The notes beneath the pieces are model-generated. The model was given only the letters and a program-made list of their open reading frames with translations, was not told the origin of the DNA and did not search any database. Shown here piece by piece: positions 34,576 through 41,905 of a stretch of DNA of 64,000 bases; position 1 is the stretch's first letter; the number at the start of each line of letters is the position of its first letter. The stretch is from Escherichia coli (GTDB taxonomy: Bacteria > Pseudomonadota > Gammaproteobacteria > Enterobacterales > Enterobacteriaceae), in assembly GCF_050320075.1 (NCBI RefSeq), contig NZ_CP190018.1, one strand, 5' to 3'. The position numbers and the translations under genes were made by a program.

Positions 34576-35307
34576 ATGAATCAACCAATACACAATGCTT
34601 ACTGGTTATCCCGTTTTGAAAGTATTCTCAACGGTGCCCTGGCGCAACACCGTGCCGTCTCGTTAATCCGGGTGGATTTACGTTTCCCTGAGTATATGCC
34701 TGCCACCATCATGGATACCGATTTAGATTCAGCGGTGATTTCTCGTTTTTTTGCATCCCTGAAAGCAAAAATTCAGGCTTACCAGCGGAAAAAACGACGT
34801 GCCAACAAGCGTGTGCGTGCAACCACTCTGCGTTATTTCTGGTGTCGGGAGTTTGGCAAGGAAAAAGGCAGGAAACATTATCACGTGATATTACTGCTCA
34901 ACAAAGATACCTGGTGCTCGCCAGGGGATTTCACCGTTCCTTCTTCGCTGGCGACGCTGATCCAACTGGCATGGTGCAGTGCTCTGCATCTTGAGCCCTG
35001 GCAGGGTAATGGACTGGTTCATTTTTCCAGGCGGACGCCTTTCCGTAAACCGACATCATCTGATGCTCGCCCTTCTTCCGATGATACGCCTGTGCCTGGT
35101 GGATGTTCTGATACCCGGAAGGATTCTGACAAAAAATCTGGTGGATCCGCTGTTCTCTGGGTCAAGCGTGGTGATGTGGAAGCGATGCAGAAAGCCATGG
35201 AGAGAGCCCGTTATCTCGTGAAGTATGAGACGAAGCAGCATGACGGTTCTGGTCAACGTAATTATGGTTGCAGTCGTGGGCTGGGGCGTCTACTGGATGG
35301 CAGGTGA
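34576..35307 (+). CDS. YfjJ/YagK-family protein (Inovirus Gp2-like), paralog 1
   Basis: 243 aa; HYHVILLL motif; preceded by a long ORF-free leader. Confidence 0.75.
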   Translation: MNQPIHNAYWLSRFESILNGALAQHRAVSLIRVDLRFPEYMPATIMDTDLDSAVISRFFASLKAKIQAYQRKKRRANKRVRATTLRYFWCREFGKEKGRKHYHVILLLNKDTWCSPGDFTVPSSLATLIQLAWCSALHLEPWQGNGLVHFSRRTPFRKPTSSDARPSSDDTPVPGGCSDTRKDSDKKSGGSAVLWVKRGDVEAMQKAMERARYLVKYETKQHDGSGQRNYGCSRGLGRLLDGR

Positions 35308-35634
35308 ACCCTGTAAAACAGCATCCGATGCCTGAGTTTATGCCAACGCCCTTAGCTCGCTTTCTGAAAAGTCGTCCTGAAGTAATGCAATGGATTGCCA
35401 TCTACTTCCGTTCGTGACACATAAGTCGAAAAACCTTTGGTTGTTCTGGTTATTTGCATTTACTGCCATTCATAGAAATGAACAGATCGATTGGTAGGAC
35501 TCAAATGTTATAGCGTCTCTCTTCTCATAGTCTGCTTTGTACCAGACGCGGAATCCCCTAATGCTGGTGTACAGGTTCTGACTCATTTCCTCCCCCACTT
35601 TCATCCCGTTATACTGTGAAAAAAGGAGGTAGGC

Positions 35635-36513
35635 GTGAAACTGAAAATGCAGGATTTGAGGCTGTTTAATATTGTGTTCGAGAGCGATCCTGGCTGGATA
35701 CTGGATTTCTCTAACCGCACCTTGTCTGCTTTTTTCGATGAAGAATTGAACATTGATATTGATGATGAACGTTATCAGAAAGAGGGGACGTCAAAAGCCA
35801 AACGAGTTAGATGCTTGCTGAAACAGGTTGATCGTGAGACCGCTCTGCGGGTTCTTGGTGCGCTCTGGCAGTATAAAACGGAATCCATGCCTGAACAGGC
35901 TAAACAAAGCCGTAATGACTATCTTGCACTGATTTCCCGCTTAGAAAACGCTGACACCGATGAAGCCAAAGGCGTTAAGCCTGTCCAGGCATGGCATGGT
36001 GTTGACTGGCATTCACTTATCGCTGAAATGAACGAGATGAAATCTCTGCCGCCACATCCACGTGGTTTTCGGTTTGAAGCCTGGCTTGCTGAACTGTTCA
36101 GTATCTTTAAGCTTGCTCCCCGTTCGTCTTTCCGAAATACAGGCGAACAGATTGACGGAAGTTTCCGACTGAATGATGAATTTTACCTGATGGAGGCAAA
36201 GTGGCATCAGAAAAGAACGTCGGCTGCCGACCTCCATGTATTTGAAGGAAAGCTCAGTACCAAGGCAACCTGGACACGCGGTGTTTTTATCAGTTGGATG
36301 GGCTTTACGCCTGAAGGCCTGACGGCTTTTGGTAAAGGGAAGCGGGTTATCTGTGTCAGTGGTTATGATCTTTACCACTCACTGAATCATAGGATCCCTT
36401 TACCCGACCTTCTGGATGCTAAAACCCGGCACGCGGCTGAAACGGGAGAGCCCTATGCTGAGTTCGACCGACTATATGCACTGAAAGACAAACAGTTCGG
36501 CACGCTGAAATAA
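35635..36513 (+). CDS. Mrr-like (PD-(D/E)xK) nuclease-domain protein with uncharacterised N-terminal domain
   Basis: GTG start with AAGGAGG 5 nt upstream; C-terminal half FEAWLAELF...GEQIDGSF...LMEAKWHQK fits Mrr-type catalytic core. Confidence 0.65.
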
Positions 36514-36527
36514 CGGGTTGGGAAGCG

Positions 36528-37141
36528 ATGACCTGCTCCCCGTTGTTTCACACAGAATCGTGTACAGGGTCGAAGTTCTGGCTCAATGTGCTGACTGAAC
36601 TGAAAAACCGCGGTCTGAACGATATCCTCATCACCTGTGTAGATAGCCTGAAAGGCTTTCCAGATGCCATCAACACAGTATATCCGGAGGCCAGCATCCA
36701 GTTATGCATCGTGCATATGGTGCGCAACAGCCTGCGCTTCGTGTCATGGAAGGACTACAAAGCCGTCACTCGCGACCTGAAAGAGATTTAATCAGGCACC
36801 CACGGAAGAGACAGGCTAGCAAGCACTAGATAAGTCGGAGCTGGCAGGCTAACTGACCGAATCTTACCACGTTCTTCGCTTATCTGACGGACATTCGCAA
36901 AGTGCGCTATACGACGAATGCCATCGAGTCACTAAACAGTGTGATCCGCCATGCGATCAAAAAGCGTAAAGTGTTCCCGACAGACGACTCGGTGAAAAAA
37001 GTGGTGTGGCTGGCAATCCAGTCTGCGTCCCAGAAATGGACGGTGTCGTTGAAGGACAGGTGTATGGCAATGAGCCGCTTTATTATCGAGTTCGGTGACT
37101 GCCTGTCACTTCTGAAAAAAGGCATTTACACAGAATCCTAA
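36528..37141 (+). pseudogene. IS256-family transposase, C-terminal fragments (frameshifted)
   Basis: 87-aa and 79-aa ORFs with IS256-like residues ([11 protein letters not shown]..., TNAIESLNSVIR). Confidence 0.6.
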
Positions 37142-39486: not shown

Positions 39487-40518
39487 GTTGATGTCATTTC
39501 TGGTGTGAGAACCTTAAGGAAACAACATGTTGGGTGGAGCGGAAAATCCAAATGGTGACCGTCTTATTATCGCTGGCGCTGACACCTGAGCGATCACCTT
39601 TAATATGGTAGCAATTACACTGAATTACTTACAGATTCGTTATAACGAACCTCTGTACATAATTATGAAACAGATTTGTATTTACATAAAACATGGATAT
39701 TTTTAATTTAGGTTTATTACTATTATTATACTCACTCCCTTTTTGATATAATCTCTATTGTTATTTACTTCCTGTCTTTACTCACTCTCTGTTCCTGTTT
39801 TCAGTGAAATAATAATTTATTTTAATTTTATCCATCATGAGCTGTATTTGCTTAACAATGATTGTTTGCCTGATATGTTTTAACTATTCTGGTGAACATC
39901 AATTCTCTGTCATCACTGATTAACTGAATGCTTACGCTTTGATAAGGTATCCATGATTCCGTCATGTTTAACAGCGCAGAATAAACAATGAAATTAACAG
40001 AGTGAATTCCTGATTATGTTTGTTTCGGGTTGTATTGTTTAAGATGCAGAGTAAAAATCATGCCAGTGGTATTTTTTACTCTGGTAATGTGTGCGGTTAA
40101 CGTTCATGTCCTTAAGAACAGATTGGATGAGGGCGTATAAGTTTATTGCGTTGGCCTTGTTCACGTTTTTTTAGAACCACTGAGAGCAAGTTTGTAGTTT
40201 ATGATTGATTGGTCGAAATATATTTCTTAACCTTCTGGTTGTGGGTTTTTATCGCGTGTTTTGCAGTATTTCGTGATGTTTATTGATTCTGTATTTTATT
40301 CGCTCCTCGTTTATCTCATCTCTTTAGCTAATACCATCAGATAATCCATTTATTTCTGCACAACGCTACGTGTCGTTAATAACCGACGTATCCATTCTGT
40401 TACAGCATGCCTGATAAATACCGTCTGTAAGTTATTACCGTTTTAGATCTGATTATGAGCGAAAGCATTAATTCGTTTACAGCACTTAAAACGTCATTAA
40501 CTTTCAGGAGTCATCAGC

Positions 40519-41085
40519 ATGCCTAAATCTTACACACCAAACTGGTTTTTTACCGCTTTACTTGACAATCACATCAATCAAATGATGGCACGCTATTCCT
40601 GCCTGCGGGCCTTACGCATGGATTTCTTCTACAGGAAAGATACGCCTGATTTCTTACAACCTGATCATCGCTGGCTTGAATTGCAGTTGCGTATGCTGCT
40701 GGAGCAGGTGGAACAATTTGAAAATATCGTTGGCTTCTTCTGGGTGATTGAATGGACGGCTGATCATGGTTTTCATGCGCATGCGGTTTTCTGGATCGAT
40801 CGTCAGAGGGTTAAAAAAATATATCCCTTTGCGGAGCGGATTACGGAATGCTGGCGGTCTATTACGCATAACAGTGGTTCGGCACACCGCTGTACATATC
40901 AGCCGCATTATACATACAACATCAACATTCCTGTGCGCCACAACGATCCTGAAAGCATCGATAATATTCGCGGTGCCCTGCATTATCTGGCGAAAGAAGA
41001 ACAAAAAGACGGGCTGTGTGCCTACGGCTGCAATGAAGTTCCTGAACGTCCTGCTGCAGGGCGTCCTCGTAAGCCTCACTTCTGA
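40519..41085 (+). CDS. YfjJ/YagK-family protein, paralog 2
   Basis: 188 aa; FHAHAVFW motif; about 950 bp ORF-free leader upstream. Confidence 0.7.
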   Translation: MPKSYTPNWFFTALLDNHINQMMARYSCLRALRMDFFYRKDTPDFLQPDHRWLELQLRMLLEQVEQFENIVGFFWVIEWTADHGFHAHAVFWIDRQRVKKIYPFAERITECWRSITHNSGSAHRCTYQPHYTYNINIPVRHNDPESIDNIRGALHYLAKEEQKDGLCAYGCNEVPERPAAGRPRKPHF

Positions 41086-41200
41086 AAGTTTGAATCATGA
41101 GTTTCCTGGCCCGGAAACACTTAGTCGGTAAAAACTTACCTCGATGATTAATGATGTGAACTGAAGTCAACGGAGATCATTCACCCTGAACCTGCATCCG

Positions 41201-41905
41201 GTGTTCTGTCCCTTATCTTCCCGTTCTGCTTCAGTTCTTCACTTATTCCATCAATCTCATCCGCAAGCCATAACACGTCAGCTCATTCACGGGCAGGACG
41301 CATTGTGGGCTGCGCATAACGGAACATATCTTATGAATGCTATTCCTTATTTCGACTATAGCCTGGCCCCCTTCTGGCCATCTTATCAGAACAAAGTCAT
41401 CGGCGTCCTTGAGCGTGCGCTGCGTGAACAGTCCTGCTCCCGGGTACGGCGGATCCTGCTTCGTCTGCCGTGGGAACATGACAACGCCTTCAGTTGCAGA
41501 AAGACCTGGTTAGGCATGGATTTTATCGAAACCGTCAGTGCGCTGATGAATGCAACCCCCGGACGCGACCTTTGCTGGATCCTAACCCGTCATCCTGAAA
41601 AGCCGGAATACCACGTGGTGCTGTGCGTCAGACAGGAGTATTTCGATGGCCCTGAACTGGACCGGCTGATTCTGGATGCCTGGAGCAACGTACTGGGCTT
41701 CGCGTCACCGGGTGAAGCGGCACCGTACCAGAAACAGATAACACGGGATGTGGTGCTGGACAGTCGTTCACCGGACTGCGAAGACATCCTCAAAGAGTTG
41801 ATATGGGCGTTCAGTGATTTCGCCCGCGATCGTCGTGGTGTGCGCGATCCGGAAGCCCGTTACCTCGCCGGTAACCCCTGGTATCCCGTAGCAGGCCAGT
41901 TCTGA
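41201..41905 (+). CDS. YfjJ/YagK-like protein, paralog 3 (start uncertain)
   Basis: EYHVVLCV motif; a conserved upstream block is present but ATT replaces the ATG found before paralog 1; internal ATG near 41336. Confidence 0.45.
   Translation: MFCPLSSRSASVLHLFHQSHPQAITRQLIHGQDALWAAHNGTYLMNAIPYFDYSLAPFWPSYQNKVIGVLERALREQSCSRVRRILLRLPWEHDNAFSCRKTWLGMDFIETVSALMNATPGRDLCWILTRHPEKPEYHVVLCVRQEYFDGPELDRLILDAWSNVLGFASPGEAAPYQKQITRDVVLDSRSPDCEDILKELIWAFSDFARDRRGVRDPEARYLAGNPWYPVAGQF

Follow-up and report, generated by a model that had tools for sequence, protein, structure and literature searches.

The 64,000-nucleotide (nt) stretch of Escherichia coli DNA analysed here (contig NZ_CP190018.1; hereafter the window) carries a large composite island in which four genes, open reading frames (ORFs) 1 to 4, lie on one strand around an alpA-like regulator gene (Table 1). 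Profile comparisons place all four as anciently diverged members of the YagK/YfjJ (Rep_ORF2/G2P-like) protein family, which has the fold of the HUH (histidine-hydrophobic residue-histidine) nucleases; the four sub-families are referred to below as types A to D. An original prediction, made from the sequence alone, had named three of these genes as family paralogs clustered within 7 kb, each with an H-hydrophobic-H motif. The three reading frames are present and the peptide strings quoted for them are exact: HYHVILLL is found at amino acids (aa) 101-108 of ORF1 (nt 34876-34899), FHAHAVFW at aa 85-92 of ORF2 (nt 40771-40794) and EYHVVLCV in ORF3 (nt 41606-41629). The count of three overlooked a fourth member, ORF4, and the start of ORF3 had been set at a GTG at 41201. 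RefSeq annotates an ATG at 41333, and two distant homologues (P0307 and P0312) begin at this same point, so that the GTG lies too far upstream to be the real start.

The relationship between the proteins is remote. Pairwise BLASTP among ORF1, ORF2 and ORF3 was not significant (E 0.02-2); they are thus not close paralogues, and their kinship, which the prediction had right in kind, is seen only with profiles. ORF1 is the sole one of the four to exceed the gathering threshold of Pfam family PF11726 (YagK_YfjJ_C; 127.8 bits, threshold 25.8 bits), and it also passes PF23343 (REP_ORF2-G2P; 38.7 bits, threshold 27.8 bits). ORF2 stays under both thresholds (21.5 bits for PF11726 and 24.5 bits for PF23343), while its homologues in Enterobacter, Citrobacter, Salmonella, Klebsiella, Serratia and Xenorhabdus carry PF23343 and PF11726. 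Many of those at 50-60% identity carry PF23343, and some are named 'rolling circle replication-associated protein'. When the ORF2 family (31 sequences) was compared with the ORF1 family (16 sequences) by hhalign, the two aligned over their full length (95.6%, E 1.2e-8), with HxH placed on HxH and YLAK on YLAK.

ORF3 had no match in Pfam, NCBIfam or PHROGs, and a word-indexed search with it returned E. coli relatives only. When 1.84 billion representatives were scanned exhaustively with HMMER, just two distant full-length relatives were gained, P0307 (34% identity) and P0312 (32%), the first of which passes PF11726 by itself at 41.8 bits. With both included, the ORF3 family aligned with the ORF1 family over 155 columns (98.2%, E 5.5e-14). 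ORF4 matched neither PF11726 nor PF23343; its family, a small alignment, was connected by hhalign to the ORF1 family (96.3%, E 1.5e-9) and, at E 2.1e-45, to a protein labelled PF27752 (UCP030791). A tblastn search with ORF4 matched plasmid genes annotated 'inovirus-type Gp2 protein', and a Serratia type D (UCP030791) protein encoded in the same module as an ORF2 homologue has both PF27752 and PF11726 matches. Neither the ORF3 nor the ORF4 family gave a signal against the ORF2 family in hhalign, NCBIfam held no match for any of the proteins, and sequence searches of the PDB returned nothing for ORF1, the ORF1 family profile or the helicase-like protein YfjI discussed below. When the family hidden Markov models of ORF1, ORF2 and ORF3 were run against all 516 ORFs of the window, the other two were in each case the next-best matches, with nothing further. 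Type A therefore appears, at the level of profiles, as the hub that connects types B, C and D, with ORF1 a clear YagK/YfjJ member, ORF2 a divergent one, ORF3 a very divergent one and ORF4 a fourth relative.

In HUH enzymes two histidines and an acidic residue hold a divalent metal, and a tyrosine attacks the scissile phosphate of single-stranded DNA (ssDNA). Of the 122 window ORFs that are 100 aa or longer, 16 contain a bare H-hydrophobic-H tripeptide, so that the motif is informative only where it stands in homologous and conserved columns. In a MAFFT alignment of 15 sequences from all four types the catalytic positions do fall in common columns, and the types fill them differently (Table 1). 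Glu, both His, Y213 and K216 of ORF1 are invariant in 16 sequences, down to 36% identity, and YfjJ of E. coli K-12, also of type A, has the same E..HYH..YxxK residues. Among the 31 sequences of the ORF2 family E78, H88, Y156 and K159 are invariant and H86 is kept in at least 90%. Relatives of ORF3 have Asp in the Glu column and C-Y-H or F-Y-H in the HUH columns, with the first His unconserved, and D162, in the Tyr column, lies within an S-D-x-x-R-D-R that is invariant in the type C family. In relatives of ORF4 the HUH columns read C-K-M, L-P-M or L-H-G, Ser or other residues occupy the Tyr column, and the Glu column holds Glu in the window copy only and a gap in the others.

Measured against the replication initiation (Rep) class of the HUH superfamily, both the His motif and a Y-x-x-K motif C-terminal to it are present in the sequences of ORF1 and ORF2 and absent from those of ORF3 and ORF4. 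ORF1 and ORF2 thus appear to keep the full Rep-type catalytic set, which ORF3 and ORF4 appear to have lost; ORF3 is probably non-catalytic, and ORF4, with neither His nor Tyr motif, is predicted to be so as well. The motif that had been assigned to each of the three proteins is therefore borne out for ORF1 and ORF2 but not for ORF3, where it reads E-Y-H. The proposed resemblance to rolling-circle Rep endonucleases divides in the same way: ORF1 and ORF2 both match REP_ORF2-G2P (ORF2 below threshold) and ORF1 has further viral Rep matches, but in type C the first His is E, C or F. Conservation of H-x-H and a catalytic tyrosine, which the prediction had put forward as checks, were found at the sequence level in types A and B, with Tyr-x-x-Lys invariant in the ORF1 and ORF2 families, but not in type C, with Asp in place of the tyrosine in ORF3.

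Table 1 Genes, motif positions and other features of the region, in window coordinates.
Feature	Position	Strand	Description
ORF1, type A	34576..35307	+	canonical YagK/YfjJ (YfjJ-like), 243 aa; RefSeq 'inovirus Gp2 family protein'
ORF1 candidate catalytic set	34849-34851 (E92); 34876-34884 (H101-Y-H103); 35212-35223 (Y213-L-V-K216)		also K220
ORF2, type B	40519..41085	+	divergent Rep_ORF2/G2P-like member, 188 aa
ORF2 candidate catalytic set	40750-40752 (E78); 40774-40782 (H86-A-H88); 40984-40995 (Y156-L-A-K159)		
ORF3, type C	41333..41905	+	very divergent member, 190 aa; RefSeq 'hypothetical protein'
ORF3 matching columns	41606-41614 (E92-Y-H94); 41816-41818 (D162)		H87 in Glu column; D162 in Tyr column
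alpA-like regulator gene	41974..42207	+	Phage_AlpA helix-turn-helix (HTH), PF05930 E 2e-10
ORF4, type D	42490..43038	+	UCP030791 family, 182 aa, after alpA; annotated 'hypothetical protein'
ORF4 matching columns	42754-42762 (I89-R-C91)		in HUH columns; no Tyr motif
Leader directly upstream of ORF1	34513..34580	+	second copy 41128-41190, upstream of ORF3
Replacement segment at yfjI position	35393..39560	.	from RefSeq annotation, Pfam and loss of colinearity with M719
Mrr_cat restriction endonuclease gene	35635-36513		inside replacement segment
H-NS-like gene	annotated ~38360-38710		within longer ORF 38270-38710; inside replacement segment
AT-rich non-coding stretch upstream of ORF2	39680..40518	+	candidate regulatory/origin region

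The structure model of ORF1 (predicted local distance difference test, pLDDT, 76.5; predicted template modelling score, pTM, 0.76) has the antiparallel beta-sheet and helices of a HUH nuclease, with the HUH motif in strand 100-109, ahead of Y213 in helix 201-214. Such an order, HUH before Tyr, is that expected of Rep proteins. Residues 154-190, about 37 in all, form a low-confidence, disordered insertion. Many ORF1 versions in databases are 214 aa long; within the stretch of this insertion, at differing positions, they shift into an alternative frame (34979-35221) and lose the Tyr helix, as if the type A gene had been inactivated repeatedly and independently. The kinship to viral Rep proteins is likewise most evident for ORF1, which matches four PHROG 'replication initiation' families and aligns with the microvirus Rep VP4 (E 4e-10; LRYF..E.G...GR.HYHVIL, with E..HYH paired), itself a PF23343 protein at 61 bits. 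Fold matches in BFVD that bear names are microvirus Rep or VP4. In the phage collection ORF1 matched one microvirus and one 4.5-kb unverified contig only. The latter, labelled 'Escherichia phage ECO111 5-P' (OR844780.1, locus L018), encodes at 277-843 a protein 41.5% identical to ORF1 and could represent packaged island DNA from a phage preparation.

Alternatively, the whole family, ORF1 and ORF2 included, could consist of non-cleaving, sequence-specific DNA-binding regulators or origin-recognition proteins in which the His and Tyr residues serve metal binding or structure. ORF3 and ORF4 are maintained without these residues, so the fold can be useful without catalysis, and the genes always stand beside the regulator gene alpA. 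Inactivated HUH-fold domains that bind origins are known from papillomavirus E1 and SV40 large T antigen. Set against this, Glu, both His, Tyr and Lys are kept across types A and B to about 35-40% identity, as is usual for an active site that has been retained, whereas the same residues are free to change in types C and D. We consider a family that does not cleave at all quite unlikely, and ORF1 and ORF2 are better described as candidate nucleases.

The arrangement of the genes is conserved too. The backbone order is ORF1-[YfjI helicase]-ORF2-ORF3-AlpA-ORF4, and it is seen in the island of strain M719 (NZ_AP023433), which is colinear with the window and free of insertion sequence (IS) debris. 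There a GTPase block on the minus strand is followed by two hypothetical genes, an ORF1-type gene, yfjI (its product a DUF3987 protein, 251 bits), ORF2-type and ORF3-type genes, alpA, a small ORF, an ORF4-type gene whose protein accession is identical to that of window ORF4, ProQ/FinO and dnd/dpt genes. Among 5426 complete E. coli genomes, with a block counted as present at a query coverage of at least 80%, ORF2-ORF3-alpA-ORF4 occurs in 1019 and the block from ORF1 through YfjI to ORF4 in 314; YJ4 is another strain with the intact module. Related sets are found elsewhere: YfjI followed further on by B, C, AlpA and D on an E. coli IncF plasmid; A, AlpA, two Zn-ribbon genes and D on Klebsiella plasmids; AlpA, B and D in K. 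aerogenes; AlpA, B, Zn-ribbons and D in Serratia; AlpA-B-C-D and AlpA-A-C-D on two uncultured contigs; A-AlpA followed by defence cargo in Morganellaceae; and alpA-yfjI-yfjJ in CP4-57 of K-12. In every related locus examined alpA adjoins family members. Small Zn_ribbon_11/DUF7828 proteins, often multicopy, also stand beside AlpA and the Rep-like paralogues (L005 5087-5910, L020 1592-4234, L019 5323-5751); they recur in Klebsiella, in Serratia and on an uncultured contig. The E. coli module lacks them, and they may be additional parts of the same system.

This fixed gene order, in M719, in the 314 genomes and in related sets of other genera, identifies the cluster as an old conserved module of one island backbone. 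The original prediction had suggested repeated island integrations, and recent local duplications would have a similar effect. The composite nature of the island, with its many IS fragments, would be in keeping with either, as would a leader of about 65 nt that is shared upstream of ORF1 and ORF3. Yet the paralogues have diverged too far for recent duplication, as the BLASTP comparisons above indicate, the same order is kept on one strand without IS in M719 and in the 314 genomes, and in other genera AlpA is again combined with these types, at 30-55% identity. Independent integrations or recent duplications are thus hardly credible as the source of the cluster. The two copies of the leader are 74-79% identical, and the second lies between ORF2 and ORF3, about 140 nt ahead of the ORF3 start. 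A 25-nt core, TTACCnCGnTGATTAATGATGTGAA, occurs at these two sites only in the 64 kb, with 0 expected by chance. The leader is found at the same two positions in other E. coli islands and was not found outside E. coli islands; it may be a common promoter, operator or binding site.

Selection was estimated as dN/dS by the Nei-Gojobori method between four islands. Purifying selection is clear for ORF2 (0.06-0.30), ORF3 (0.10-0.27, with reading frames intact in all four islands) and alpA (0.05-0.12), and weaker for ORF4 (0.31-0.50). These values bear on the possibility that ORF3 and ORF4 are decaying, functionless remnants, to which the loss of the catalytic residues, the many frameshifted ORF3 variants in databases, the narrow distribution of the ORF3 type and the relaxed ratio of ORF4 could all point. 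The constraint on ORF3 speaks against decay, as does the synteny of types C and D, which is kept in other genera at 25-35% identity. The ORF3 model, too, is a well-folded domain (pLDDT 73), with its secondary-structure elements in the same order as in ORF1. Decay of the two genes is accordingly regarded as improbable, and a maintained function without catalysis is the better description.

Upstream of ORF2 the AT-rich stretch at 39680-40518 (29-37% G+C) is conserved at 80-95% identity in four islands and contains repeats of TACTCACTC at 39729 and 39779. In M719 all four TAYTCAYTC sites of 30.6 kb fall within 130 nt on one strand (L009 13177-13307), a pattern that was picked after seeing the sequence; the window copy of the stretch has a deletion of about 150 nt, and two of the sites remain. 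Tandem repeats were absent when an origin was searched for, and the direct and inverted repeats that turned up were short and weak. As a candidate iteron or origin the TAYTCAYTC cluster is suggestive, and the conserved AT-rich 0.85-1 kb that contains it is the best lead for a nick site.

Taken together, we read the region as the core replication and excision-control module of a P4-integrase/AlpA island beside the fim-nan genes, with types A and B as nickases and types C and D as non-catalytic partners, and we give this reading somewhat better than an even chance. AlpA of CP4-57 switches on the integrase and excision. By analogy, AlpA would here trigger excision to give a circular island, upon which ORF1 and ORF2 would act as metal-dependent, site-specific single-strand DNA nickases. 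After HUH cleavage protein and DNA are joined by a 5'-phosphotyrosine link, and the 3'-OH set free primes rolling-circle synthesis or strand transfer; the nick would accordingly start replication of the rolling-circle type or hand a strand over for transfer. YfjI, where present, would work with ORF1 and ORF2, while ORF3 and ORF4 would be DNA-binding or regulatory partners without catalytic activity. The DUF3987 family to which YfjI belongs has been assigned to the superfamily 6 (SF6) replicative helicases (PMC4889955), and for one member 5' to 3' unwinding of DNA has been demonstrated (PMC11724360).

Several observations weigh against this interpretation. No nick site or origin was identified in the region, the candidate repeats being weak and their pattern post hoc. 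Many islands carry a family member without YfjI, so that partnership with the helicase is not obligatory. Constraint on ORF1 appears weak (dN/dS 0.48, from one pair with few changes), and many of its database copies are frameshifted before the Tyr helix. A literature search found no biochemical, genetic or functional study of YfjJ, YagK or Gp2-like island proteins, and phage transduction is how the one island class with a Gp2-like core gene that has been studied by experiment moves, replication having been outside that study (PNAS 2025; bioRxiv 10.1101/2024.08.29.610337).

A role in island mobilisation, as the original prediction proposed, is plausible, and one version of it would make ORF1 and ORF2 relaxases rather than replication initiators. 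In this case they would nick an origin of transfer (oriT) on the excised island, for mobilisation as ssDNA by a helper conjugative plasmid or integrative and conjugative element. The chemistry is shared with Rep proteins, so the evidence from catalytic residues applies equally to both. The divergent neighbouring block (GTPase, DUF932, antirestriction, JAB/RadC-like and toxin-antitoxin genes) resembles genes of plasmid leading regions as generally known, and copies of the module sit on conjugative plasmids. On the other hand, the order of HUH and Tyr is that of Rep proteins and not of classical MOB relaxases, and the nearest sequence relatives are likewise Reps, from microviruses and inoviruses. 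A helicase of the replicative type is often the neighbour, and neither an oriT nor a coupling protein or mobilisation accessory gene was seen. A relaxase function therefore seems unlikely, and initiation of replication remains the favoured role for ORF1 and ORF2.

Perhaps the AlpA islands of Enterobacterales carry an undescribed multi-component system built on one HUH Rep fold. One or two active nickases (A, B) would be joined by one or two dedicated inactive paralogues (C, D), which would time nicking, copying or handover to a helper by binding to the active enzymes or to the island origin. This would be a Rep with its own pseudo-enzyme regulators, coupled to AlpA excision and to a separate SF6 helicase. 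Such an elaborate arrangement is a speculative extension, and we would sooner bet against it than for it.

The copy of the module in the window is eroded. Positions 34000-42500 match the chromosome of E. coli W2-5 (NZ_CP032989), as well as several further strains, at 100% identity. About 90 nt past the ORF1 stop the window leaves colinearity with M719, and where M719 has yfjI it holds the Mrr_cat restriction endonuclease gene, IS256 and IS3 fragments and the H-NS-like gene; the yfjI site may be a hot spot of cargo exchange inside the core module. With YfjI replaced, IS debris present and the integrase reduced to a distant pseudogene, this copy of the island is probably no longer mobile.

Along the window, iadA/uxu/fim/nan genes lead into the island, where a minus-strand block encodes a GTPase, an HTH protein, DUF905, DUF932, antirestriction and JAB/RadC-like proteins and the CbtA/YeeU toxin-antitoxin pair. 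The YagK/YfjJ-type gene region comes next, and then ProQ/FinO, IS elements, metabolic cargo and autotransporters. Outside the window lie dnd/dpt genes and the integrase pseudogene, the sole integrase found; no tRNA gene is present in the window. The combination of alpA, four yfjJ-type genes and the GTPase-DUF932-antirestriction-RadC-like-CbtA/CbeA block marks a P4-integrase/AlpA-type (CP4-57-like) backbone, here lacking yfjI and with no more than that pseudogene for an integrase. An Inovirus prophage is not indicated: no gene for an ssDNA-binding protein, a coat protein or a Zot-like ATPase is found among the annotated genes of the 64-kb window and its flanks. A known anti-phage defence system was also considered and rejected, PADLOC giving no match for the four proteins and their neighbours. 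Rfam gave no match over 31000-45000 at E up to 0.1, and a scan for promoters and terminators found no more sites than expected by chance.

Two further observations concern the flanks of the module. Between the GTPase block and ORF1, very AT-rich DNA (30-36% G+C) contains a lysine-rich ORF of 376 aa (31965-33095) with no match in Pfam, NCBIfam, PHROGs or PADLOC; M719 has a hypothetical gene of 407 aa at the equivalent place. Pseudogenes of the ProQ/FinO family flank the inserted cargo, one after ORF4 (43057-43403) and one before dndB (L003 17083-17429), where M719 has a single intact copy between ORF4 and dndB; about 28 kb of cargo thus seems to have entered at the ProQ/FinO gene by insertion or recombination.

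More than half of complete E. coli genomes have islands of the AlpA type, whose cargo includes virulence, defence and metabolic genes. Two intact Rep-type nickase candidates and two inactivated copies, in fixed order with AlpA and often beside a helicase, provide concrete genes and residues for mutation, and two families of 'hypothetical proteins' (the ORF3 type and the ORF4 type, UCP030791) find a place in the Rep-like superfamily. Most of the original prediction restates what annotation already said, the HUH reading of YagK/YfjJ being implicit in the database names 'inovirus Gp2 family' and 'rolling circle replication-associated protein'. What goes beyond annotation is the recognition of ORF3 and ORF4 as Rep-fold relatives without an active site, the four-gene module with AlpA and often a helicase, and the eroded state of the window copy.

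Among known systems, the closest relatives are YfjJ of CP4-57 and YagK of CP4-6 (PF11726, formerly Inovirus Gp2/DUF3296). ORF1 is a full-length member of this family (hhalign to YfjJ, E 2.4e-45), and alpA and yfjI, the neighbours of yfjJ in CP4-57, are also typical of the ORF1 backbone. ORF1 differs from both proteins by its disordered insertion, while ORF2, ORF3 and ORF4, which fall below the PF11726 threshold, form separate sub-families. ORF4 belongs to PF27752 (UCP030791, 'putative phage-derived protein') and has the same position after alpA; the description of that family does not derive it from Rep proteins, whereas here it is tied to YagK/YfjJ by profile comparison and by the double Pfam matches of the Serratia protein. 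SEN1998 of ROD21 was considered as a family member and rejected, being an AlpA-like recombination directionality factor.

With the Reps of ssDNA phages (PF23343, microvirus VP4, inovirus gene II-type) the sequence match takes in Glu, the HUH motif and the Y-x-x-K(Y) helix, without change of order. The island proteins, in contrast, are bare nuclease domains of 180-245 aa (VP4 has 489 aa), and their genes are chromosomal and lie beside an excision regulator with no phage structural genes nearby. With the HUH domains of parvovirus NS1/AAV Rep and of SIRV1 ORF119, for which structures are solved, sequence identity is 9-15%; the helicase of NS1/AAV Rep is a fused superfamily 3 (SF3) domain, whereas that of the islands is a separate DUF3987/SF6 protein. 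Papillomavirus E1 and SV40 large T, as generally known, keep a Rep-type fold after His/Tyr loss and offer a functional analogy for ORF3 and ORF4, although no sequence or structural match to either protein was obtained and DNA binding by ORF3 and ORF4 is putative. A further close system is that of the Pseudomonas intY-alpA islands, which are transduced by a jumbo phage (PNAS 2025; bioRxiv 10.1101/2024.08.29.610337) and share the core of AlpA, an inovirus Gp2-like protein, a RadC-like protein, an HTH protein and defence cargo. The hosts differ, no multi-paralogue arrangement was reported there, and the Gp2-like gene is listed only as a core gene, whereas the E. coli backbone combines four diverged relatives, two with and two without the candidate catalytic set, in one conserved order with AlpA.

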